Shown piece by piece: positions 25,483-62,792 of a stretch of DNA of 64,000 bases (within the stretch, counting starts at the first letter, position 1; the number at the start of each line of letters is the position of its first letter). The stretch lies in NCBI GenBank assembly GCA_965262725.1, contig OZ253555.1, positions 256,001 through 320,000 of the forward strand, written 5' to 3'. The position numbers and the translations under genes were made by a program. The stretch comes from Dehalococcoidia bacterium (GTDB taxonomy: Bacteria; Chloroflexota; Dehalococcoidia; UBA2979). The notes under the pieces were generated by a model. It had not been told where the DNA came from. It saw only the letters and a list, made by a program, of their open reading frames with translations, and did no database searches.

Positions 25483-28293
25483 ATGTCCCGTGTGGTCATC
25501 CCGATCGGCCCGACTGAGATGCTACCGGCGGGGTCGGGCTCCGATCGGCGGCTCGGTCTTCTTGCCGTCTTCGCCCTTCCGCTGGTGGTGATGCTCTTTT
25601 TTTCGTGGGCGGAACCGGCCTCCGGCGCCACGACGACAGGCGGGGAGAGCAGAGAGCCGGTACGGGCCGCGGCGGCGCAGGCGAGCGTCGGCGCGGACCA
25701 GCCGGAACTGGGCTCGGCAGCCCTCGCCTCCGTCAGCACCGGCTGGCTCCATACGTGCGGCGTCAGGACCGACGGATCCGCCTCCTGCTGGGGCAGCGAT
25801 TCGCACGGCCAGGCCGCGCCTCCTGACGGGACCTTCACCTCCGTCAGCGCCGGGTGGCTCCATACGTGCGGCGTACGGACCGACGGATCCCTCGCCTGCT
25901 GGGGCCAGGATGCATCGGGGGAGGCCACGCCTCCTGACGGGACCTTCACCTCCGTCAGCGCCGGGTGGCTCTACACCTGCGGCGTGAGGACCGACGGCTC
26001 CGCCTCCTGCTGGGGCGACGATGCATTCGGGAGGGCCACGCCGCCGGAGGGGACCTTTGCCTCCGTCAGCGCCGGGGGCGTCCTCACCTGCGGCGTCAGG
26101 AGCGACGGCTCCGCCTCCTGCTGGGGCTGGAACACGGACGGTCAGGCCGCGCCGCCGGAGGGGGAATTCACCTCCGTCAGCAGCGGAGAGCTCCACGCCT
26201 GCGGCGTCGGGACCGACGGCTCCGTCACCTGCTGGGGCAGTGGTGCCCGCGGCCAGGCCACGCCTCTGGAGGGCACGTTCTCATCCGTCAGCGCCGGGCG
26301 CCTCCACAGCTGCGGAGTGAGGACGGACGGCACCGCCTCCTGCTGGGGCAGTGATGCCTTCGGCCGAGGGACGCCGGCGGTCGGGGCGTACGCCTCCGTC
26401 GACGCCGGGGACCGCCACACCTGCAGCGTCCAGACAGACGGCTCCGTCGCCTGCTGGGGCTGGAACGAGTCCGGACAGGCGACGCCGCCCGGCGGGGAGT
26501 TCACCTCCGTCAGCACCGGCCACCGCCATACCTGCGGCCTGCGGGCCGACGGCACCGCCTCATGCTGGGGCGATGATCCGCACGGCCAGGCCACGCCGCC
26601 TGAGGGGCAGTTTGTCTCCGTCGGCTCCGGCTACAACCAGACCTGCGGCGTGAGAGCCGACGACACCATCGTCTGCTGGGGCTGGGACGAATACGACCAG
26701 GCCACACCGCCCGCCGGAAACTTCGTCACCACCAGCGCCGGGGGATCCCACACGTGCGGCGTGAGAGCCGACGGCTCCGTCGTCTGCTGGGGCGATGATG
26801 AACATGGCCAGACCCGGGCACCGGCCCGGGCGTTCGCCTCCGTCAGCGCCGGCGAGTTCCACAGCTGCGGGGTGGAGGCAGGCGGCTCCGTCTCCTGCTG
26901 GGGCGACAATCGACACGGTCAGTCCACGCCGCCCGACGGGACGTTTGCCTCCGTCAGCGCCGGCTGGGAACACAGCTGCGCCGTGAGAACCGACGGCTCC
27001 GCCTCCTGCTGGGGCAACAACGAGAAGGGCCGCTCCACTCCGCCCGACGGGACGTTCACCTCCGTCAGCGCCGGGCCGCGCCATAGCTGCGGCGTGAGAA
27101 CCGACGGATCCGCCTCCTGCTGGGGCAGTGACGCGTTTGACCGGGCCACTGCGCCCGACGGGCAGTTCGCCTCCGTCAGCGCCGGGTGGCTCCATAGCTG
27201 CGGCGTGAGAACCGACGGCTCCGTCGCATGCTGGGGCCAGGACACAGACGGCCGACACGCACCACCGGAGGGGGAGTTCGCCTCCGTCAGCGCCGCGCGG
27301 CTCCTCAGCTGCGGCGTGACAAGCGCGGGCTCCGCCTCATGCTGGGGCCCGGATCGCTCCCACCGGTCCAGGCCGCCCGTCGGAGAGTTCGCCTCCGTCA
27401 GCGCTCGGTGGCTCCACGCCTGCGGCGTGAGAACCGACGGATCCGTCACCTGCTGGGGCGATGATGACGACGGCCAGGCCACACCGCCCGTGGGGGAGTT
27501 CGCCTCCGTCAGCACCGGCGGGTACCACGGCTGCGCCCTGAAGACCGACGGATCCGTCACGTGCTGGGGCGATGACAACTACGGCCAGGCCACGCCTCCG
27601 GAGGGGACGTTCAGCGCTGTGAGCGTCGGGGGGTTCCACACCTGCGGCGTGAAGACCGACCGCTCCGTCGTCTGCTGGGGCTACGATCTCTTCGGCCAGG
27701 TCACGCCTCCGGACGGAAGGTTCGCCTCCGTCAGCACGGGTGCATTCCACACCTGCGGCCTGAAGAGCGACCGCTCCGTCGCCTGCTGGGGCTCGGATTC
27801 CCGCGGCAAGACCACTCCACCCGATGGGACGTTCGCCTCCGTCAGCGCCGGACTGGCCCACACCTGCGCCGTGAAGACCGACGGCTCCGCCATATGCTGG
27901 GGCTACGAGCTAGCTGGTCGGACCGCGGCTCCCGACGGGACGTTCGTCTCCGTCACCGCCGGTGTGAACCACTCCTGCGGGATCACGACCGGCGGCTCCG
28001 TCACCTGCTGGGGTCTGGACGACCACGGGCAGGCCACGCCGCCGCAGGGGGCGTTCACCTCCCTGACCCTCGGGCGAACGCACACGTGCGGTGTCACACC
28101 CAACGGCACCGTCACCTGCTGGGGCGACGACGGAGGAGGCCCGGCCACCCGCCCGAACGAGACGTTCGTCTCCATCAGCTCCCGGGAGCGCCTGACGTAC
28201 GGCGTGCGTAGTGACGGCTCCATCGTCTACTGGGGCGTGAGGGTGGACGCGGACAGCGCGCTCCGCCTCATCGCGGAGGCCGGCGGGTCATGA
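25483..28293 (+). CDS. RCC1/BLIP-II-like repeat protein with more than 20 repeats of about 37 aa
   Basis: SVSAGxxHTCGVRTDGSxxCWGxxxxGQATPP tandem units after a hydrophobic N-terminus. Confidence 0.9.
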   Translation: MSRVVIPIGPTEMLPAGSGSDRRLGLLAVFALPLVVMLFFSWAEPASGATTTGGESREPVRAAAAQASVGADQPELGSAALASVSTGWLHTCGVRTDGSASCWGSDSHGQAAPPDGTFTSVSAGWLHTCGVRTDGSLACWGQDASGEATPPDGTFTSVSAGWLYTCGVRTDGSASCWGDDAFGRATPPEGTFASVSAGGVLTCGVRSDGSASCWGWNTDGQAAPPEGEFTSVSSGELHACGVGTDGSVTCWGSGARGQATPLEGTFSSVSAGRLHSCGVRTDGTASCWGSDAFGRGTPAVGAYASVDAGDRHTCSVQTDGSVACWGWNESGQATPPGGEFTSVSTGHRHTCGLRADGTASCWGDDPHGQATPPEGQFVSVGSGYNQTCGVRADDTIVCWGWDEYDQATPPAGNFVTTSAGGSHTCGVRADGSVVCWGDDEHGQTRAPARAFASVSAGEFHSCGVEAGGSVSCWGDNRHGQSTPPDGTFASVSAGWEHSCAVRTDGSASCWGNNEKGRSTPPDGTFTSVSAGPRHSCGVRTDGSASCWGSDAFDRATAPDGQFASVSAGWLHSCGVRTDGSVACWGQDTDGRHAPPEGEFASVSAARLLSCGVTSAGSASCWGPDRSHRSRPPVGEFASVSARWLHACGVRTDGSVTCWGDDDDGQATPPVGEFASVSTGGYHGCALKTDGSVTCWGDDNYGQATPPEGTFSAVSVGGFHTCGVKTDRSVVCWGYDLFGQVTPPDGRFASVSTGAFHTCGLKSDRSVACWGSDSRGKTTPPDGTFASVSAGLAHTCAVKTDGSAICWGYELAGRTAAPDGTFVSVTAGVNHSCGITTGGSVTCWGLDDHGQATPPQGAFTSLTLGRTHTCGVTPNGTVTCWGDDGGGPATRPNETFVSISSRERLTYGVRSDGSIVYWGVRVDADSALRLIAEAGGS

Positions 28294-34786: not shown

Positions 34787-35471
34787 CCAAGAGCGCGATC
34801 GGCCTCAACATCGCCTTCATGTCCGTGGAAGCCGGCGGACTGAGCGCCGAGACACGCACCTGCATCGCGTCCGTCGCCATGGAGCACCCCGCCGCCTTCG
34901 GGATCGGCCCACCGCCCACGGCCGATGACTTTGCAGGCCTGTTCGGCGCAGGCATACAGATGAACCTCTGCCTGACCGACGAGGAGGCCGCCGCTCTCGC
35001 AGGTGCGGGCGGCGACGGACTCCCGCCGCCCTCGGTCATACGGTGCATGGAGGAGCAGATCGGCAGCCTGGACGACCTCCTCGCCGCCTTCTTGGCTCTG
35101 ATGGGCGAGGAACCGGATCCCAGCGCGGCGCTCGGCCTGTTCGCGGCAGCTCAGGAATGTAGGGTCAGGGGCTGGCGCGGTGCGAGCCGTAGGCGGTGGC
35201 GCATCAGTTCCAAGCCGGTTTCCCGGTGGTGCCCAACTCCACGGCCATAGCAGCGTCCGTCTCCAGCCCCTGCCACATCGAACCGGACGTGAGGTTCTCC
35301 CTCATCCGGCTCACCGATGCCCTTCACCAGATGGCATGCAGCGCTCCCCACAACGTGGGTCGTGCCTTGGCCAGCCGGTACAGCATGTGCGGAGAGCCTC
35401 GAACTGGGAATGATGCTTACATCTGGCCCCACTTTGATCCTCTGATCTGGCCCCACCCCCGGGGACCGGGA

Positions 35472-36254
35472 TCAGGTCGTTGGGGCACCTCCTCTCGGGG
35501 AGGTCGAGGCCCGGAGCCGGTAGGACTCGGTGCCGGTCTCGATGATATGGGCACGGTAGGTGAGGCGGTCAACGACGGCCGCGGCGAGACGAGGGTCGGT
35601 GAAGATGCGGCCCCACTCGGAGAACGGGGAGTTGGAGGCGACGGCGACCGATGCCCGTTCCTCGCGCTCGGTCAGGATCTGGAACAGCATTTCGGCACCG
35701 CGCGGGTCGAGGTGGACGTACCCGAACTCATCCAGGCAGAGCAGGTCGAGGCGGCCGTAGCGGGCGACGAGGCGTGAGAGCGCGCGATCATCCGACGCTT
35801 CGGCCAGTTCATTCACCAGGGCGGCCGTGGTCATGTACCGCACGCGCAGCCCCAGGTGGCAGGCGGCCATGCCGAGGCCGATGAGCAGGTGTGACTTCCC
35901 GGTGCCGCTGTCACCGAGCAGGACGACGGGCTCGCCCCTTTCGACCCAGTCGCAGCGCTCCAGCGTGGCGAGCGCCGGCGCGTCGACTGTCGGCGCCGCC
36001 TCGAGGTCGAAGTCGGCGAGGTACTTGAAACGCGGGAACCGCGCCTCGACGATACGGCGCTGACGGCGCCGCTCCTCACGGTCATCGCGTTCGGCTCCCA
36101 GCACTTCGGCGAGATAGCCCAGATGGGTGATCCGGTCTCGGACCGCGGCTTCGGCGAGCGGGAGCGCCTGCTTCCTGACGGTGGGGAGACGGAGCTCGCG
36201 GCAGATCGCCTCGATTGTCAGCTCCGCGGCCTGGTCGGTGAGGGGTGCTGTCAT
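35472..36254 (-). CDS. istB: IS21 helper ATPase IstB
   Basis: GDSGTGKS, LLCLDE and AAVVDRL motifs. Confidence 0.9.
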   Translation of the reverse strand: MTAPLTDQAAELTIEAICRELRLPTVRKQALPLAEAAVRDRITHLGYLAEVLGAERDDREERRRQRRIVEARFPRFKYLADFDLEAAPTVDAPALATLERCDWVERGEPVVLLGDSGTGKSHLLIGLGMAACHLGLRVRYMTTAALVNELAEASDDRALSRLVARYGRLDLLCLDEFGYVHLDPRGAEMLFQILTEREERASVAVASNSPFSEWGRIFTDPRLAAAVVDRLTYRAHIIETGTESYRLRASTSPRGGAPTT

Positions 36255-36270
36255 CGGGTGCCTCCTGTGG

Positions 36271-37905
36271 TCAGCGTGCCGTCGACACCGCAGCGGTGAC
36301 GGCGGTTGTGGTGGTGTGCGACGCGTTCTCGGCAGACCGCGGAGCGCGGGAGCGCCCGCCCGGCGACGTGCCGGGCCATCGGGAATCACCCGAGAGCAGC
36401 GCATCGTAGCCATCGAGGAGCGGGGCAGGTCGGTCGTAGCGCTCCAGGTGCGGTCTCTCGACGGCGGCGTCTGGTGGCCTGCGGTCGGCGAGACGGCGCG
36501 CCTCGATGGCGACCAGTTCGGGGTTCACCGACTGGATCCTGTTGACCGTCCCGAGCGCGGCGTGCACCGCCGTGAAGGGAAGATGGCGATGCAGGAGCAG
36601 GACCTCGATGTACGCCTGCGTGCCCGCGCGGTCGCCGAGCTTGCGGCGGGCGCGGTCCCAGAAGCGCTGATGCTCGGCTGTGACGTGTCCCTTCGCACGC
36701 GCCTGCTGGAGCGCCACCGAGCCCGGGACCGCCCCGGGCTTGCGCGCGAGCACCTCCAGATAGTGGTCGAGCAGCAGGACCTCTGCTCCGGTGCGGGCGC
36801 TGCGCTCGTGGTGGGCGACTTCACGCCCCTCGGCCCACACGGTCAGGCTGTTCCCGGACAGCCGCACGTCCAGCTTCCGGCCTGCATAGGCCGCCGGGAC
36901 CGAGTAGCGGGAGCTACGCACGGCGATGCGCGCCTTGCGGTCGACCTTCGCGCGCAGCGGGATTGACGGGTCGAAGCGCTCCGCCGGAAGCGGACGCAGC
37001 GAGGCCTTCTCGTTCTCTCCCATCTCGCCGACGGTGGCGAGGCGGCTCTCGATGTGCCGGGCGTCGTCGGTGCGGTCCGCCTCCCGCACTCGTTCGTTCA
37101 GCTCGCCGAGGGTCGCCACCTTCGGGACCGGCACGAAGTGCCGCCGGCGGAAGCGGCCGACCTCGCCCTCCACACCGCCCTTCTCGTGCGCGCCCTCGAT
37201 GCCGGGCTCACAGAAGAAGCTGTCGAAGCCGTAATGCGAGCGGAGCGCGATGAAGCGCTCGGTCTGCAGGCGCTCGCGTCCCTGCAGCACGGTGGTGACG
37301 GCCGCCGTCAGATTGTCGTAGCGGATGCGCCGCGGCACTCCGCCGAGCCGCTCGAAGGCGACCACGTGCCCCTCGAGCAGAGACTCCTGGCCCTCGCCGA
37401 CGAAGCAGACGTGCGCCGCCCGCCCCGAATGCGAGAGCCGCATCACGAACATCGCCAGCCGGGTCTCGACGCCCTCCAGCCACACCGTCACCGTGCCGAA
37501 GTCGACCTCCGCCTCCTCGCCGGGAGGATGGACCTGCGGGATCGTCACAACCGCGCGCCCGCCCTGGATCTCGCGACGCAGGCGCGCGACGCAGGCGCGG
37601 ACCGTGGGCTCGGCCACCGTCGCCCCGTGTTCGTCGACGAGGCGCTCCCAGATGCGCCGGGCCGTGTGCCGCTGCTTGCGCGGCGCGCTGAGGTCGTCCA
37701 CGAGCCAGCCCCGGATGACCGAGACGTACGGCCCGAGCTTCGGGGCCACGCGGGTCGCCTGCTTGCGTTCCGGGGGTATCGCCGACCCAAGAGCCTGCCG
37801 CACCGTGCGCCGGTGCACGCCATGCCGGCGTCCCAGCTCATGGATCGACAGCTCCTCCTCCCTCGCCATCCGTCGGATAGACTCGAACAGCTCCACTCTC
37901 GACAC
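36271..37905 (-). CDS. istA: IS21 transposase IstA
   Basis: PGEEAEVDFG, YDN and HEKGGVE motifs. Confidence 0.92.
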   Translation of the reverse strand: MSRVELFESIRRMAREEELSIHELGRRHGVHRRTVRQALGSAIPPERKQATRVAPKLGPYVSVIRGWLVDDLSAPRKQRHTARRIWERLVDEHGATVAEPTVRACVARLRREIQGGRAVVTIPQVHPPGEEAEVDFGTVTVWLEGVETRLAMFVMRLSHSGRAAHVCFVGEGQESLLEGHVVAFERLGGVPRRIRYDNLTAAVTTVLQGRERLQTERFIALRSHYGFDSFFCEPGIEGAHEKGGVEGEVGRFRRRHFVPVPKVATLGELNERVREADRTDDARHIESRLATVGEMGENEKASLRPLPAERFDPSIPLRAKVDRKARIAVRSSRYSVPAAYAGRKLDVRLSGNSLTVWAEGREVAHHERSARTGAEVLLLDHYLEVLARKPGAVPGSVALQQARAKGHVTAEHQRFWDRARRKLGDRAGTQAYIEVLLLHRHLPFTAVHAALGTVNRIQSVNPELVAIEARRLADRRPPDAAVERPHLERYDRPAPLLDGYDALLSGDSRWPGTSPGGRSRAPRSAENASHTTTTAVTAAVSTAR

Positions 37906-38990
37906 ACTCCTCTTCCCTCGCTCCGGGAGTCATGCAGTCACCCGAGCGTAGGTCCTGGATGGGTCGGGGGTGGGGCCAATTCAAAGGATCAAAACGGCTC
38001 CAGGTGGGGCCAATTCAGAGCATCATTCCCACCGAACCCTACCAAGTGGTTGCTAGCCCCGAGGGGCACTCACCAGTCCACACCCCCAGCAACATGCACG
38101 GACAAAGTAGGGGTCCTTCCCATCACCGGCGGTTATGTTGTCCGTCCGGCTCCAGCGGTACTACGACCCCCTCCGCCACCCTTCCGGCTGGCTGTCCACT
38201 TCCCGGCTCTGACCGGTTATAGGACGCCTCGCTCCGACGCCCTCTCACAGGGTGCCGGGCCGGGGAGGGCTTCTCCGGTTCCCGTCGCTACCTTCCGTAC
38301 GTTCCACGTCCCATACGCCGGGAGGTTTCTTGAGGCTGCATTCCAGGATCTTCACCTCGTCCATGGCCTTCGCCCTGACCACCCGGGCTCGGCTCCTCCT
38401 TGGTCCTGTCAATAGACAGGCGAGTCTCACGGCGCGGCAGACTTCGCGTCATGCTGCGGACCGCACGTTTGCTCCCCCTCATAGGGCTCTTGACGTCGGG
38501 CTTCGACGCAGACCGTTTCCCGTCCACGCCGCCGACCTGCTAACGGGCCTCCTGACAGTTACCCGTGCCGGACTCTCACCGGCTGGCAGCAACGAGCATG
38601 TCTCCGGACCGGTCACGTCATCACGTCACCACCCCTTCGACTTCCGGACGCACGCGGGGCCGACCTCGAAGGAGCCCCAGGTCTGCCTAGTGTCCCGAGT
38701 TGCAAATGCTGAAAACAATCGCACCGAGCCTCGCAGGCTTGGTCCGCTCAGTGGAGGCTTGGGTCGCAACTGGAACGAGCACCGGATGCGCTTCATCTCG
38801 CACAAGACCACCGACCAGATCCTTGAGTAGGGTCAGGGGCTGGCGCGGTGCGAGCCGTAGGCGGTGGCGCATATTGCCAGGCCGGTTTCCCGGTGGCGCC
38901 CATCTCCACAGCCGTAGCATCGTCCGTCTCCAGCCCCTGCCGCCTCGAACCGGACGTGAGGTTTTCCCTCATCCGGCTCACCGATGCCCT

Positions 38991-41190
38991 TCACCGGGCG
39001 GCATGCGGGGTGCCCCGCCACGGTCGATATGGCCGTGGTGCCACGACGCGCTGTCCAGCTAGCGAGATGAGCCCCAGACGGTCGGCGACGGGAAACGGGT
39101 GCCCGCGATGGCGTCGCCGCCAACGCAACCGCTTCCCCAGCCAGAGTTTGAGTCTCCACATGGCAAACCAGTGCAGGACGTCGAACGCCCTCGCCGAGTT
39201 GCCGTAGCGGAAGTAGCTCATCCAGCCGCGGAGGTAGCGATTGACTTCCTCCACGACCTGCCGGGGACTCAGCAGCAGACGCAACCGCGCCGTGATTTCA
39301 CGGATGCGGTCCCGCGCCCGCTGCATCGCTCGCCGTGAGGGCCAGCGTGCGAGGAACTGGATATTCTTGTTGCGCTTCGCACGTACCCAGCGATGCTCGA
39401 AGCCGAGGAACTCCAGCCCCTCGCCTCCCTCCCGCAGGTGCACGATGCGCGTCTTCTCCGCCTTGAGCTCCAGTCCGAGCTCACCCAGCAGGTCACGCAG
39501 CAGGGCCAACGCCCGCTCCGCTTCCTCCCGGCTCCGGCAGAGCACCACGAGGTCATCCGCATAGCGCACCAGCACGCCATCACCCTTCGCCTCCCAGTCC
39601 CGGTCCAACCGGTGCAGGTAGACATTGGCCAGCAGCGGGGACATCACCCCGCCCTGCGGCGTACCCGTCGCGCTGTGCTGCACGACCCCCGACTCCATCA
39701 CACCGGCACGCAGCATCGCCCGTACCAGCTTCAGGAGATTGCGGTCGCATATCCGTTCCTCGACGGCCGTCATCAGACGGTCGTGTAGGGTCAGGGGCTG
39801 GCGCGGTGCGAGCCGTAGGCGGTGGCGCATCAGTTCCAAGCCGGTTTCCCGGTGGTGCCCAACTCCACGGCCATAGCAGCGTCCGTCTCCAGCCCCTGCC
39901 ACATCGAACCGGACGTGAGGTTCTCCCTCATCCGGCTCACCGATGCCCTTCACCAGATGGCATGCAGCGCTCCCCACAACGTGGGTCGTGCCTTGGCCAG
40001 CCGGTACAGCATGTGCGGAGAGCCTCGAACCCTACCAAGTGGTTGCTAGCCCCGAGGGGCACTCACCAGTCCACACCCCCAGCAACATGCACGGACAAAG
40101 TAGGGGTCCTTCCCATCACCGGCGGTTATGTTGTCCGTCCGGCTCCAGCGGTACTACGACCCCCTCCGCCACCCTTCCGGCTGGCTGTCCACTTCCCGGC
40201 TCTGACCGGTTATAGGACGCCTCGCTCCGACGCCCTCTCACAGGGTGCCGGGCCGGGGAGGGCTTCTCCGGTTCCCGTCGCTACCTTCCGTACGTTCCAC
40301 GTCCCATACGCCGGGAGGTTTCTTGAGGCTGCATTCCAGGATCTTCACCTCGTCCATGGCCTTCGCCCTGACCACCCGGGCTCGGCTCCTCCTTGGTCCT
40401 GTCAATAGACAGGCGAGTCTCACGGCGCGGCAGACTTCGCGTCATGCTGCGGACCGCACGTTTGCTCCCCCTCATAGGGCTCTTGACGTCGGGCTTCGAC
40501 GCAGACCGTTTCCCGTCCACGCCGCCGACCTGCTAACGGGCCTCCTGACAGTTACCCGTGCCGGACTCTCACCGGCTGGCAGCAACGAGCATGTCTCCGG
40601 ACCGGTCACGTCATCACGTCACCACCCCTTCGACTTCCGGACGCACGCGGTATCGACTCGAAACACGAGGCGATGTCCGTCTCCACTACCCACCGCCTGC
40701 CCCGCCACGCCTCGTCAATGAGGACCTGCAGGGCGTCATGGGCCGAACGCTTCGGGCGGAAGCCGAAGCTGCATGGCAGGAAGTCGGCCTCGAAGACCGG
40801 CTCCGTCACGAGCTTCAGCGACGCCTGCACGATGCGGTCGCGGACCGAAGGAATCGAGAGCGGGCGCTCTTCCGACCGACCGGGCTTGGGTATCCAGACC
40901 CGGCGGCTCGGCTGCACCCGGTATCTTCCCTCCTTCAGTTCCGTGGCCAGTTCATCCAGCAGGCGCTCCACGCCGTAGCGCTCGACCTCGGCGAGCGTGA
41001 CGCCGTCGATACCGGCTGCGCCGCGATTGCGACGCACCTGCTCCCACGCGCGCTCCAGAATGTCTCTGCGATAAACCTTGTCGTAGAGCGCATGAAAGCG
41101 TCTATTGGGGTCGGCCTTGGCCGCCCGGTAAAGCGTGCGTTGTAGTGTTCGGACCTTGTCTTGGATGGAGTTAGCCGCTTGGGCACTCAC
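38991..41190 (-). CDS. ltrA: Group II intron RT/maturase (about 445 aa when spliced, no endonuclease domain), interrupted by ORF-less intron copy 2
   Basis: GAAGIDG, IPKPG, DRIVQ, SFGFRP, DIASCFESIP|HDRL, GTPQGG, RYADD, FLGF and LRGWMSYF motifs. Confidence 0.93.
39785..40646 (-). mobile_element. ORF-less group II intron, copy 2 (862 nt), inside the RT gene
   Basis: Same sequence as copies 1 and 3 by eye. Precise removal gives CCG C|AC GAC (P-H-D). Confidence 0.95.
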
Positions 41191-41808
41191 CGATTCATCC
41201 CTACTCCCCACGCGTGAGCAAAGCAGGGGTCCTTCCCATCACCGGCGGTTGTGTTGTCCGTCCGGCTCAAGCGGTACTACGACCCCCTCCGTCACCCTTC
41301 CGGCTAGCTGCCCACTTCCCGGCTTTGACCGGTTATAGGGCACCTCGCTCCGACACCATCTCGCAGGGTGCCGGGCCGGGGAGGGCTTCTCCCGTTCCCG
41401 TCGCTACCTTCCAAACGTTCCACGCCCCTTACGCCGGGAGGTTCCTTGAGGCTGCAGCGCAACGCGCATTCAGGATCTTCACCTCGTCCATGGCCTTCGC
41501 CCTGAATTGCCGGGCTCGGCTCCTCCACTATCCGTTAACGACGCGGCAGGCTTCGCTTGATGCTGCGGACCGCTTGGTTGCTCCCCCTGATAGGGCTCTT
41601 GACGTCGGGCTTCGACGTGGACCGTTTCCCGTCCGCGCCGCCGACCTGCTAACGGGCCTCCTGACAGTTACCCGTGCCGGACTCGCACCGGCTGGCAACG
41701 ACGAGCATGTCTCCAGACCGGTTACGTCATCACGTCACCCGCCCTTCGACTTCGGGACACACCAACCTCACCGGATATCTCAATCGCATTTCCAATTCAG
41801 GACACTAG

Positions 41809-43714
41809 GACGCTGGTGCCAAACTCGAGTCACGGCGGCCGCAGTCGGTGTGAGAGGGAAGTGTAGCGTCGGGTGGGCGCGGGTCGGGAGTTGCGCCGCT
41901 GGGGAGTGAGCGGGGCCGGCATCGACCCGGGGACCCCCGGACGCAGGCTCTCCCGCAGTCGCCCCCGCCTCCGTCTCCCCTACGAGGGCGCTGTGACCGC
42001 CCACCGGGTTGGTGTGTGATGCAGGCCCAGGACCGCCAACCGCGCCAGGTTGACGGAGGCGGCGAGCAGATTGTGGTCGGCGTCGACCTTGAGACGGCCC
42101 CGGACACGGGCGACGCGGCCCCCGTGTCTGCGACGGGTCGTATGCGCCACCTTGCGTTCGACTCGCGAGCGGACCGCGCGGTAGCCGGATAGCCACCCGG
42201 GAGTCTCCTGGCGTGCCCGGGCGGCCGCGAGACTGGCCTCGTGGACGCCCACCGCGACGGTGCGTCCCCCGCGCGATGTGGTGCACTGCGCGCGAAGCGG
42301 ACAGGGGCTGCAGGCGCCCCGGAAGCAGGCGGTTCCCGAGCCGTCGGAGGCGCGGCGAATCGGCACCGTCACCTCCGCGGGGCAGGTCACGGTGCCCCTC
42401 TCCAGGTCGATGGTGAATCGCTCCTTGCTGAAGTGCTGATGCGGCGCGGTCGCTCTCTGAGTGCGGCAGCGGGACTCGACCCCGTGCTGCTCCAGCACCT
42501 CCTGGAACGCGCCCGAGCCGTAGGCCGAATCGCCGTAGACCGTCGGTGTCCCGGTGCTCGCCTCCGCAGCCGCGTCGGCGGCTAAGTCGTGTGCCCCTGC
42601 GTCCTCCAGCAGGTCCGTGATCAACTCCTCCGCAACCTCCCCGTCCGCCACGTTGCCCGCGGTCACCGTCGTGTGGGTGATGAGCTCCGACTCCGGGTCG
42701 ACCGCCAGATGGCCCTTGTAGCCGTCGAAGCCGTGCGCGGAGCTCTTGCGTCCGTGGCGGGCGTCGGTGTCCACGGTCGAGATGATGCGGTCCCTCGCTA
42801 CCCGCCGCGCAATCACGAAGCGCCCGCCGTCGTCCTGCTCGAGGTCCTGCCCCACCACGGCCGCACAGAGCTCGCCCGCCCGCTCGACGTGCCCGTCGAG
42901 CTCCCGGCCCTCCAGCACCCGCAGGCAGCGCGATACATCGGCCGCCAGCTCGTCGATGAGCGCCCGCGCGGCCTCGCGGTCCTCCCAGTCGCACGGAGGC
43001 TTCCCAGCGGCCCGGTAGTCGTCATCGCGCTCCAGCACCGCCCGCAGCTCGGCCCCGAGTCCGGGCGCATCGAGGCTCTCCGCCTCCCGCAGCAGCCCGC
43101 GGAGCGACGAGCGGAGCAACGTCACCGTGTCCTGCGTGGCGACGGCGTCGTAGAGCGGCGTGGAGTCCAGCACACGCTGAGCAGAGAGCAGCTTCGCCTC
43201 GCGCGCCACCGCGAGCGTGGCCTCGAAGATGCGCCGGGGACGCTCGGAGCCGGCGAGGCGAGCGCGCATCGAGACCAGGACCGTGTGCACGAAGCCCGGC
43301 GCGTCGTAGTCGAGTCCGCCGCAGGCGAACTTCCAGCGGGCGTCCCACTCGAAGGCCGCCACCGCCTCGCGGTCGGAGAGGCCGTGGAGTCGCTGCAGCA
43401 CCATGACCGTGGCGACGACGCGGGACGGAACGCTGCGGCGGCCGCGAGCGGCGAAGAGGTCGGCGAACATCTCGTCGGGGAAGAGGCGTTCACCCTCGCG
43501 GGCCAGGAGGGTCCAGATCGAGTTCCCGGGAACCCTCTCAGCGACGTAGGCGGTGCTCTTGAAGAGGTGGGGCTGCCTGGAGGTCTCTCCGAGTGTCATG
43601 GGCGCGCCTTCCGCTGCGAACGGAACTGATCACCCACATGATCGCATCCCGTGACTCAGCTCGCAACGCGACCCCGCCTCCAGCGGCACCCACCGTCCAA
43701 AAAACACCAGCCTC
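41809..43714 (-). mobile_element. IS1182/IS5-like element
   Basis: IRs gacgctggtg / gaggctggtg; CTAG at 41805-41808 and 43715-43718. Confidence 0.8.
41980..43599 (-). CDS. IS1182-like transposase
   Basis: GLSDREA, VLDSTPL, DGYKGH, GDSAYG, zinc-ribbon CxxCPLRxQC and RSRVERK motifs. Confidence 0.85.
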   Translation of the reverse strand: MTLGETSRQPHLFKSTAYVAERVPGNSIWTLLAREGERLFPDEMFADLFAARGRRSVPSRVVATVMVLQRLHGLSDREAVAAFEWDARWKFACGGLDYDAPGFVHTVLVSMRARLAGSERPRRIFEATLAVAREAKLLSAQRVLDSTPLYDAVATQDTVTLLRSSLRGLLREAESLDAPGLGAELRAVLERDDDYRAAGKPPCDWEDREAARALIDELAADVSRCLRVLEGRELDGHVERAGELCAAVVGQDLEQDDGGRFVIARRVARDRIISTVDTDARHGRKSSAHGFDGYKGHLAVDPESELITHTTVTAGNVADGEVAEELITDLLEDAGAHDLAADAAAEASTGTPTVYGDSAYGSGAFQEVLEQHGVESRCRTQRATAPHQHFSKERFTIDLERGTVTCPAEVTVPIRRASDGSGTACFRGACSPCPLRAQCTTSRGGRTVAVGVHEASLAAARARQETPGWLSGYRAVRSRVERKVAHTTRRRHGGRVARVRGRLKVDADHNLLAASVNLARLAVLGLHHTPTRWAVTAPS

Positions 43715-55050: not shown

Positions 55051-55224
55051 GGTGGCGGCTCCGGATGGGCTCGGGGTGGAGATGGGATGCCCGGTGCGCG
55101 CTCGCCCCACGCGGAGCGACGGCCCGGGCTAGAGCATCATCCTTCCGGCGTGCCGCCGTGCGGCGGCGCCCCGGCGCCGACTCGGTGCCTCCGTGGGGAT
55201 GGTGCTCTGCATCAACGTGCCTCT

Positions 55225-55346
55225 GCTCATCGCTCCCGGCGCTCGTGCGCGGCCACCGGGTCGGCTGGGGCACCGCATCCCCCCTCGGTCGGGGGAGGGT
55301 TGCCGTGGCTTCGTCGGGCCGATTCCCTCTGCCACTCGTGATGAAC
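55225..55346 (-). ncRNA. SAM-I (S-box) riboswitch
   Basis: TTCATCACGAGTGGCAGAGGGAATCGGCCCGACGAAGCCACGGCAACC...GGTGCC...GATGAG matches the SAM-I consensus. Confidence 0.85.
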
Positions 55347-55386
55347 GACCCCGGCGTGCATACGCGTCCCGGGGCGCCCATCGAGG

Positions 55387-61021: not shown

Positions 61022-62792
61022 TCAGTCGGAATTCTCTGCCTGCCCCAGCGGGGGCTCGGTCGGGGCATTCAATATCGCCTTCTTGACCTCATCCGAGAAG
61101 TCCCGTTGTAGGGTCAGGGGCTGGCGCGGTGCGAGCCGTAGGCGGTGGCGCATCAGTTCCAAGCCGGTTTCCCGGTGGTGCCCAACTCCACGGCCATAGC
61201 AGCGTCCGTCTCCAGCCCCTGCCACATCGAACCGGACGTGAGGTTCTCCCTCATCCGGCTCACCGATGCCCTTCACCAGATGGCATGCAGCGCTCCCCAC
61301 AACGTGGGTCGTGCCTTGGCCAGCCGGTACAGCATGTGCGGAGAGCCTCGAACCCTACCAAGTGGTTGCTAGCCCCGAGGGGCACTCACCAGTCCACACC
61401 CCCAGCAACATGCACGGACAAAGTAGGGGTCCTTCCCATCACCGGCGGTTATGTTGTCCGTCCGGCTCCAGCGGTACTACGACCCCCTCCGCCACCCTTC
61501 CGGCTGGCTGTCCACTTCCCGGCTCTGACCGGTTATAGGACGCCTCGCTCCGACGCCCTCTCACAGGGTGCCGGGCCGGGGAGGGCTTCTCCGGTTCCCG
61601 TCGCTACCTTCCGTACGTTCCACGTCCCATACGCCGGGAGGTTTCTTGAGGCTGCATTCCAGGATCTTCACCTCGTCCATGGCCTTCGCCCTGACCACCC
61701 GGGCTCGGCTCCTCCTTGGTCCTGTCAATAGACAGGCGAGTCTCACGGCGCGGCAGACTTCGCGTCATGCTGCGGACCGCACGTTTGCTCCCCCTCATAG
61801 GGCTCTTGACGTCGGGCTTCGACGCAGACCGTTTCCCGTCCACGCCGCCGACCTGCTAACGGGCCTCCTGACAGTTACCCGTGCCGGACTCTCACCGGCT
61901 GGCAGCAACGAGCATGTCTCCGGACCGGTCACGTCATCACGTCACCACCCCTTCGACTTCCGGACGCACGCAGCACCCACTCGAGGTATCCGGGATCCTC
62001 GCTTCTGACGTCCACCAGCGCACGGCCGGCGTACCTCCCGAAGTTCATCAGGACCCTACCGTCGCGCCACACAAGCCTCCCATCGGGGTCGAGCCACGAT
62101 GGGTCGGGGCGTCGCTGGCCCGAGAGACGATCGAGTTCCTTGAGTTCGGTGGGGAGATTTGCGTAACGCTCGAACTGTCCCCACAGCACCTCAACCGAGC
62201 TCATCGCGTCGGCGATCGCGCTGTGCGCAGCTTCGATCTCTCGCCCCGTGTAGAAGTCGACGGCCGCCGCCAGGTCCCTGCGTTCGCGATCGTGAAAGAT
62301 CCTGAGGGCGTCCACGACCCACCGATGGGAGATCGAGAACTCGATCCCCGCCCGGCGGAACTCTGCCTCCAGCAGCGGAATGTCGAAGCGGACGACACCG
62401 AAGCCCGCGAGATCGCAGTCGAGCAGGAACTCGGCCACCGCCGGCGCCGTCTCGGCGAACACTGGCCGCTCGGCAACGAGCTCGTCGGTGATCCCGTGCA
62501 CCGCGCTGGCCCCCGCTGGTATGGGGACGCCGGGATTGACTCTCGTGTGGAGGAGTTCGGTCTCCCCCGACGGGTACAGCTTGATTGCACCGATCTCCAC
62601 GATGCGGTCGCTCAGCGGGTCCGTTCCCGTCGTCTCGAGATCGATGAAGACGAGCGGGCGGAGCAGGCCGAGCCGGCCCGCGAGCTCGCGAGCCTTCGGC
62701 TCTAGCGTGCTGGGCCGCTGCGCGAGCCTCCTGGCTCCGTGATCGTCCGACGATACGCTCTCGATGAGGTGCTCCCTATCAGTCGCCCACAA
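61022..62792 (-). CDS. DEDD 3'-5' exonuclease (DnaQ-like, about 302 aa when spliced), interrupted by ORF-less intron copy 3
   Basis: FIDLETTG, FD and AHSAIADA motifs. Splicing joins YLEWVL-Q-RDFSDEVK. Start codon uncertain. Confidence 0.85.
61108..61969 (-). mobile_element. ORF-less group II intron, copy 3 (862 nt)
   Basis: GTGCG...CCCTAC ends; same sequence as copy 2 by eye; no TSD. Confidence 0.95.

Follow-up and report, generated by a model that had tools for sequence, protein, structure and literature searches.

Anatomy of the nested introns

The 64,000-nucleotide (nt) stretch of DNA analyzed here, referred to as the window, comprises positions 256,001 to 320,000 of contig OZ253555.1 (assembly GCA_965262725.1) from a Dehalococcoidia bacterium. 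Its minus strand carries a composite group II intron, or twintron, in which an intron without an open reading frame (ORF) lies inside the reverse transcriptase (RT)/maturase ORF of a related intron. Throughout, A denotes the outer intron, B its relative, M the inner intron, and C (“class-C”) a third group II family. A first-pass annotation of the same DNA had described an 862-nt ORF-less intron in sense orientation in the RT gene of a related intron, and the coordinates, the intron ends, and the Rfam matches obtained here agree with that description. The parts of the twintron, in window coordinates and from its 5' end, are as follows.

38827..41762, minus strand: composite twintron (outer A plus inner M), 2936 nt in total; A measures 2074 nt without the insert
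40647..41762, minus strand: 5' segment of A, with domains 1 to 3 (D1-D3), the start of D4, and RT exon 1, supported by the RF02003 match and the alignment with M
41529..41534, minus strand: exon-binding site 2 (EBS2) of A, CGGAUA, pairing with UAUCCG at −15..−10 of the A 5' exon
41505..41509, minus strand: EBS1 of A, CAAUU, pairing with GGUUG at −5..−1 of the A 5' exon, including two G-U pairs
40647..41211, minus strand: RT exon 1, amino acids (aa) 1-188 and the first base of the His189 codon
39785..40646, minus strand: inner ORF-less group II intron M, 862 nt, in sense orientation inside the A RT ORF
40414..40419, minus strand: EBS2 of M, GACUCG, pairing with CGAGUC at −14..−9 of the RT target
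40371..40375, minus strand: EBS1 of M, GUGGU, pairing with ACCGC at −5..−1 of the RT target
39906..39938, minus strand: D5 hairpin of M, with AGC triad and 2-nt bulge, from the Rfam D5 models and the fold
39785..39901, minus strand: D6 of M, unusually long, with the bulged A at 39791, 7 nt from the 3' splice site
38991..39784, minus strand: RT exon 2, the last two bases of the His189 codon, aa 190-452, and the stop codon
38827..38981, minus strand: D5 of A (38947-38979) and its long D6, from RF00029 and the D5 models

The ends of A on the minus strand (5' GTGTG at 41762 and 3' ...CCCTAC at 38827) are fixed by 14 empty target sites in the genome, one of which is identical over 35 nt. Rfam models match its 5' part (RF02003, group-II-D1D4-4, 41558-41694, 95.3 bits) and its D5/D6 region (RF00029, 38914-38981, 41.5 bits). 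The final 40 nt of A are identical to those of M, and by this homology the bulged A of its D6 is expected at 38833. The boundaries were cross-checked with an 87%-identical intron of a related genome (locus L002), which forms a single 2073-nt piece with an RT that is continuous over aa 2-452.

Read without splicing, the frame that opens at the GTG at 41211 runs to 40606, where it passes from ...CFESIP into a 13-aa tail, RASGSRRGGDVMT, and stops, as the first-pass annotation had noted. Scripted removal of 39785-40646 joins ...ESIP-H-DRL... across a His codon split as C|AC and leaves a single open frame with an intact YADD motif; the predicted ligated exon junction reads ...GATACCGC|ACGACCG.... 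The RT/maturase restored in this way has 452 aa from the GTG at 41211, and the 445-aa product previously proposed corresponds to an alternative GTG start at 41190, seven codons further on.

Exon 2 encodes RT4-7 with YADD and the maturase X/GIIM region. The two halves of the protein match the group II RT/maturase profile TIGR04416 at positions 2-137 (172.4 bits) and 140-352 (214.5 bits), and RVT_1 at positions 1-83 and 90-204; GIIM is also matched. The break in the RT is clean, since the halves abut on both profiles. Each half alone misses the 300-bit cutoff of TIGR04416, which is reached by the summed scores. The nearest solved structures are group II RTs (7uim, 6ar1, and 6me0). No Pfam match to an HNH/endonuclease (En) domain was found in the A RT, where only ∼40 aa follow GIIM, and the protein is therefore En-minus. 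Intron-encoded proteins (IEPs) of this kind occur within the group II family, in classes C-F (PMC4424553).

The ends of M (5' GTGCG at 40646 and 3' ...CCCTAC at 39785) fit the GUGYG/AY rule and are fixed by the exact restoration of the RT frame and by the comparison of 28 copies. Its D1-D4 core matches the full RF02003 model (1-138) at 40442-40578 with 102.8 bits against a gathering score of 49 bits. The D5/D6 match to RF00029 (37.5 bits) falls just below the gathering score of 40 bits because D6 carries a long insert. When the last 161 nt were folded, a canonical D5 formed, followed by a long D6 in which the A at −7 is unpaired (z = −4.67), and 0 of 200 shuffled sequences were as stable. At the RT site, the EBS of M form 11 of 11 possible pairs with the intron-binding sites (IBS). 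The codons around the insertion (...FESIP|H) presumably belong to RT block 3. Since M sits in the ORF loop of A D4, the domains of the outer ribozyme are uninterrupted.

The relationship between the two introns is apparent from their alignment. M aligns to A nt 1-544 and 1879-2074, with identities of 86% over M nt 1-551 (D1-D3) and 89% over M nt 666-862 (D5-D6), and M nt 552-664 align at 82-83% to the D4a/ORF-start region of the L002 intron. Remnants of the RT persist in M (the first ∼30 and last ∼10 codons), with ∼1.2 kb of the ORF gone. M and A diverge exactly at the two D1 loops that hold EBS1 and EBS2, each of which pairs with the 5' exon of its own intron. M is therefore an ORF-deleted derivative of an A-like intron, and its altered EBS1 and EBS2 now match a 14-nt segment of the RT gene itself. 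It combines the features of an ORF-less intron, namely, a deleted ORF, retained ORF remnants, D4a, and ribozyme, and related IEP-bearing introns (A and B) in the same genome. The identity values and the RT-terminus remnants bear out the earlier proposal of a genuine twintron with a nonautonomous relative inside.

Copies of M, A, and B in this and related genomes

The genome is a 3.67-Mb single contig (70.6% GC, 91.55% marker completeness) that contains 28 copies of M, of which 24 are full-length and identical, 1 is truncated at nt 857 with one mismatch, and 3 are split by other elements. In all, 27 of the 28 copies are identical, the single mismatch occurring in 24,140 aligned nt. The copies occupy 14 distinct kinds of site: 15 have the RT 5' exon, 1 is the second unit of an M-M tandem, and 12 lie at other sites. 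M is present at the same codon (A nt 1116|1117) in 12 of 12 A loci and in 3 of 3 loci of B, which is 75-81% identical to A, and the flanks of these loci differ. The principal home of M is the RT gene of its own relatives.

No empty M site was found in the genome when up to 7 substitutions in 35 nt were allowed; a like search for A target sites returned 14 empty and 12 filled ones. Among the genomic frames of 300 or more codons that lack stops and contain a YADD-like motif, none is a continuous A/B-type RT. The search for uninterrupted copies thus gave 0 of 12 for A and 0 of 3 for B; the intact helper copy that the first-pass annotation had named as refuting its proposal was not found for this RT family, and the proposal that full RT arises only after removal of the inner intron, made for this locus, extends to every A and B copy. 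It had also been stated that no other group II RT is visible in the window, which is true, but the genome holds 12 continuous RT frames, all of family C and all with YADD, the nearest of them ∼16.4 kb beyond the window end.

Removal of M in silico gives an intact 452-aa RT in 8 A copies, and the RT of the B copy B3 is intact once M and a C intron nested in that M are removed. The A copies are 99.8-100% identical (7 differences, confined to 3 sites, over 24,943 nt), and the three B copies do not differ over the parts that were compared.

Three loci present further arrangements. At L019 (G000:C1:732591-737446), a 1923-nt family C intron (734423-736345, RF02005) with its own continuous RT frame lies at M nt 722|723, and that M lies in a B RT gene, forming a three-level nest. 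In relatives, the A-like introns of L001 and L006 have a C-like intron inserted at the homologous position, shortly before D5. Two complete M copies stand head to tail with no spacer in one A copy at L020 (G000:C1:548384-552181), from which it follows that M can reverse-splice again into an occupied RT site. M is also found in a family C RT gene, at the ...YGFSHGFRPG... motif (L021, G000:C1:1521918-1526026), where it directly follows another insert of ∼1.36 kb whose terminus (...GGGCTAC) resembles the 3' end of an intron. The corresponding position of a sister locus (1875232-1878478) holds an insert of ∼1.34 kb but no M.

Related genomes with Dehalococcoidia metagenome-assembled genome records hold A-like introns with a continuous RT, namely, that of L002 (aa 2-452) and that of L001 (aa 4-444). 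These RT genes already carry a similar M site, with IBS2 conserved in both and IBS1 conserved in L002. No full-length M was found in the 60 relatives searched. In a sample of 400 genomes from the class, M had just one full-length match, a 73%-identical, 911-nt ORF-less intron in a genome (G371) of another genus of the same family. That intron has other deletion endpoints and is present in at least two copies (C1:1972909-1973819 and C1:1859038-1859948; L023 and L025), none inside an RT gene. Since it was derived separately, ORF loss recurs in this group. Nesting in the helper RT was found in this genome only, among the genomes searched. Exact-pattern scans of metagenome contigs found neither the exon 1/M junction nor the region of the M deletion junction.

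Mobility, RT expression, and alternative explanations

The possibility that repeat collapse or a chimera placed M in the RT gene is the first to be weighed, since a 28-copy repeat is the type of sequence that confuses assemblers. The same junctions, however, recur at 15 loci, each with its own flanks, in a genome assembled as one contig, and the insertion is exact to the base when compared with the continuous homologues. Sequencing runs were also considered. Four of the seven listed runs (X1, X2, X3, and X7) were compared with 39500-41000; X1 is labeled RNA (share 0.12), X2 is guessed to be RNA (share 0.10), and five are of unknown kind. Short-read unitigs of X3 and X7, from two other studies, extend from RT exon 2 into M by 23-27 nt, overhangs that fall below the 31-nt bridging threshold, and no contig directly joining the two RT exons was found in the compared runs. 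Misassembly, which the first-pass annotation had singled out as fatal to its proposal, is hence at odds with the 15 concordant loci and with the unitigs entering M, and we regard it as so improbable as to be negligible.

The sites occupied by M speak to how it moves. The 12 sites outside RT genes keep the EBS1/EBS2 pairing through C/U and A/G exchanges, and 10 of them form at least 9 of 11 pairs; of 20,000 random genome positions, 2.9% did as well. This maintained IBS pairing shows that M moved by reverse splicing. It has also homed independently of A and B, as seen from the M-M tandem in one A copy and from the identical M in A and B; given that B is only 75-81% alike to A, these arrangements imply at least three separate homings of M into the RT site. 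The stand-alone copies lie in sense in plausible genes, in antisense (for example, in histidine-kinase-like and phosphotriesterase-like frames), or between genes; open frames are common at 70.6% GC, and the Pfam check was limited to the case of an exonuclease gene described below.

The hosts of A are an insertion-sequence family, which we take from its transposase C terminus to be IS630, and its short derivatives resembling miniature inverted-repeat transposable elements (MITEs), entered at a conserved site. Their flanks exist in several sequence variants, and together with the near identity of the A copies, this indicates that A retrohomed into diverged targets and was not just carried by one transposing copy.

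Orientation adds a further element, since M insertions run with the direction of replication, as would fit spread linked to it. With dnaA at 478 kb, 26 of the 28 M copies (25 of 27 independent loci) point away from it. The orientation switches at 0.41-0.54 Mb and at 2.54-2.56 Mb, which coincide with the minimum (0.40 Mb, flat to 0.45 Mb) and the maximum (2.51 Mb) of the cumulative GC skew. En-minus introns are primed at replication forks, so a replication-linked orientation bias is expected for them (PMC4424553, and a published survey of strand bias). From 0 to ∼0.45 Mb, a region dense in introns and insertion sequences, the cumulative GC skew shows no slope even though the position of dnaA is 478 kb.

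In the reading that we favor and consider probable, the En-minus intron A homes into an insertion-sequence site, the retargeted M fills the A and B RT genes, and the RT made from M-spliced RNA serves both introns. Protein from M-spliced transcripts would act as maturase and reverse transcriptase for A and M, and both would spread by endonuclease-independent, replication-fork-primed retrohoming. Help for M in trans is suggested by its retention of D4a and of the ORF ends, as in other ORF-less introns mobilized in trans. M would then be a hyperparasite, with the most conserved stretch of the helper serving it as a perpetual homing site, and new A copies may arise either as whole twintrons or by reinvasion of M.

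Because no A/B-type RT gene is uninterrupted, production of an A/B-type RT depends on splicing of M. Splicing of M would in turn probably need the A/B RT, giving a self-reinforcing loop that could be seeded by low-level, protein-independent splicing. We infer from this anatomy a possible positive-feedback gate on RT production. A stronger version, in which A, B, and M form a natural bistable retroelement switch with a heritable on/off state and the 2.9-kb twintron propagates as a unit, is conceivable but doubtful. The RT would then be present only in cell lineages from whose transcripts M had already been spliced out, by that RT or by rare protein-free splicing.

An open frame of 328 codons (38991-39977, minus strand) runs from the D5 region of M in frame across its 3' splice site into RT4-7 and the maturase. 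It is probably a chance product of 70% GC DNA: a stop-free run of ∼64 codons is unsurprising at such GC, and no Shine-Dalgarno-like sequence was seen by eye. A bolder and less likely addition to the switch version is that this frame might yield a MatK-like, maturase-only protein from unspliced RNA, which would prime the loop.

Several observations weigh against the favored reading. No evidence of splicing was seen in the RNA-labeled runs X1 and X2, whose pieces comprise 263 nt and 179 nt identical to internal M and ∼35-nt D5 pieces from other organisms; the RT exons are uncovered, so these runs are uninformative on expression. No joint that skips 39785-40646 was reported in the four runs, a weak negative because contigs show presence only. 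The sign of the expected strand bias rests in part on general background on the mechanism. The polymorphisms (7 differences in A and 1 in M) are too few to tell mobility of the twintron as a unit from rehoming of M. The single contig stands at 91.55% completeness, and an unassembled plasmid could carry an intact RT copy. Moreover, the elements may no longer be active, since insertion sequences have later struck 5 A loci out of 12, 2 B loci out of 3 (all 3 when the class-C intron is counted), and a single stand-alone M copy out of 12. The 12 continuous family C frames, to which we return below, belong with these points.

Carried to its end, the loss of activity would make the family a dead end, in which M knocked out every A/B RT gene, the family fell silent, and the identity of the copies reflects a recent burst whose loci are fresh fossils. 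The filling of 15 of 15 RT sites with no continuous A/B frame left would be expected in that case, as would the insertion sequences and the class-C intron that persist unpurged in every B locus, in 5 of the 12 A loci, and in 1 stand-alone M copy; the lack of transcript evidence in X1 and X2, which left the RT exons uncovered, is also compatible with it. M nevertheless keeps every ribozyme hallmark tested, it lies in sense and is placed so that exact splicing restores the frame, and 8 A copies still encode an intact RT. It also lies in sense in apparently intact host genes, such as the exonuclease gene at 61108-61969. We therefore judge this explanation unlikely.

A further alternative retains activity without feedback, M and possibly A being served by the family C RT, a host factor, or robust self-splicing. 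The 12 continuous family C RT frames with YADD make such cross-help conceivable, and C introns are physically associated with these elements, one nested in M (734423-736345) and others in the A-like introns of relatives. “Driver” IEPs with relaxed specificity are described in Thermosynechococcus elongatus; those documented there are, however, 84-100% identical to each other (PMC2882425). By comparison, the family C RT is 38-40% identical to that of A, its RNA matches another Rfam family (RF02005, not RF02003), and no nucleotide similarity to M is found outside the RT motifs. This divergence makes cross-help unlikely, and we consider the absence of feedback distinctly improbable.

Known nested introns and the surroundings of the twintron

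An ORF-less intron nested in the IEP ORF of its helper is already known in kind, from a cyanobacterium and from an archaeon. In T. elongatus, ORF-less TeI3 lies inside the TeI4 IEP ORF in five of eight ORF-containing introns, and two keep continuous ORFs (PMC2882425). As described by Mohr, Ghanem, and Lambowitz (2010, PMC2882425), the inner introns there resemble M in that they stem from a single ORF deletion, have diverged EBS, are mobilized in trans, and lie in the helper IEP ORF. According to the same account, the inner copies do not differ in sequence, and an insertion sequence or another intron is the target of some of the introns, outer ones included; the authors considered that inner and outer introns may move together as a unit or separately (PMC2882425). 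The position of the insert is different. The T. elongatus inner intron lies between the first two ATGs, and the IEP can be translated from the second ATG without splicing (PMC2882425), whereas here the insert is mid-RT (aa 188/189), the full RT has no bypass start, and 15 of 15 copies are interrupted. The T. elongatus IEPs are, moreover, reported to have an En domain and to belong to another lineage (PMC2882425); here the IEP is En-minus and the host belongs to another phylum.

In the nesting described for Methanosarcina acetivorans, introns home repeatedly into related intron ORFs and serve as perpetual homing sites at several levels (PMC4424553), a likeness to the three-level nest found here (C in M in B). 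That host is an archaeon, and its nests reach up to five levels, balanced by recombinational deletion (Dai and Zimmerly 2003, via PMC4424553). A bacterial twintron is also described in Trichodesmium erythraeum, where the inner intron must splice before the outer and sequential splicing was shown in vivo (Pfreundt and Hess 2015, PMC4649490). That twintron lies, however, in a conserved host gene, and the order of splicing matters for the outer intron and not for a helper protein (PMC4649490). In Chaetomium thermophilum, a group IIA1 intron interrupts the homing-endonuclease ORF of the group I intron mS1247 and is considered a regulator of its expression; it differs from the present case in being a group II intron inside a group I intron, in its mitochondrial location, and in the independence of the inner intron from the interrupted protein (PMC4801052).

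The present case is set apart by its mid-RT insert, by the saturation of 15 of 15 copies with no member of the family left continuous, and by its En-minus class and host lineage. Full-text literature searches found no description of saturation of all helper copies, and a limited full-text search found no paper on group II introns in Dehalococcoidia.

The genome offers an unusually clean natural test of how a nonautonomous group II intron coexists with its helper: 28 near-identical mini-introns saturate all 15 helper RT genes, yet the anatomy permits full restoration by splicing. Should splicing occur as predicted, sequential splicing would be obligatory for IEP expression, and feedback or bistability of retroelement activity would become measurable. 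The locus also extends intron-in-intron homing, proliferation of ORF-less introns, and insertion-sequence targeting from cyanobacteria and archaea to a Dehalococcoidia-related lineage. For annotation, it shows that nested introns can make pipelines miss every RT of a family or call it a pseudogene.

Within the window, the twintron is accompanied by two further M copies and by other mobile elements.

41763..41808, strand unassigned: 5'-exon side of the MITE-like host element of A, ending in the terminal repeat ...GGACACTAG
38687..38826, strand unassigned: 3'-exon side of the same MITE-like element, beginning CTAGTGTCC
38033..38653, minus strand: 5' part (nt 1-621) of the second M copy, 173 nt downstream of the twintron, with an RF02003 match at 38449-38585
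35405..38032, minus strand: IS21-family element splitting the second M copy, with an IstA-like ORF at 36271-37905 and IstB at 35472-36413
35159..35404, minus strand: 3' part (nt 617-862) of the second M copy, beyond the IS21 element
61108..61969, minus strand: third M copy, in sense inside an RNase_T/ExoX-like exonuclease gene

Comparison of the flanks of 12 copies identifies the host of A at this locus as a short, MITE-like insertion-sequence derivative without transposase. A DDE transposase of 539 aa (DDE_Tnp_1_6, DDE_Tnp_1, and DUF772; 41980-43599, minus strand) lies immediately upstream of this MITE, and the neighborhood of the twintron as a whole is a patchwork of mobile elements. The IS21 element matches the Pfam families IstB_IS21 (1e−60) and Mu-transpos_C_2. 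Elsewhere in the genome, at least three A loci and two B loci are broken by insertions of similar length (∼2.6 kb, compared by length only), and an IS21-type element may therefore favor these introns as targets.

The third M copy is inserted within the ExoX-like_C domain, following position 25 of the 30-position Pfam profile, and its location in the exonuclease gene makes it a convenient place to follow M splicing in a host mRNA. Elsewhere in the window, ∼22 tandem copies of a 111-nt unit, 66-82% alike and a multiple of three in length, occupy 25617-28247 and probably encode a protein of 37-aa repeats. An S-adenosylmethionine (SAM) riboswitch (RF00162, 58.7 bits) is found at 55224-55347 on the minus strand.

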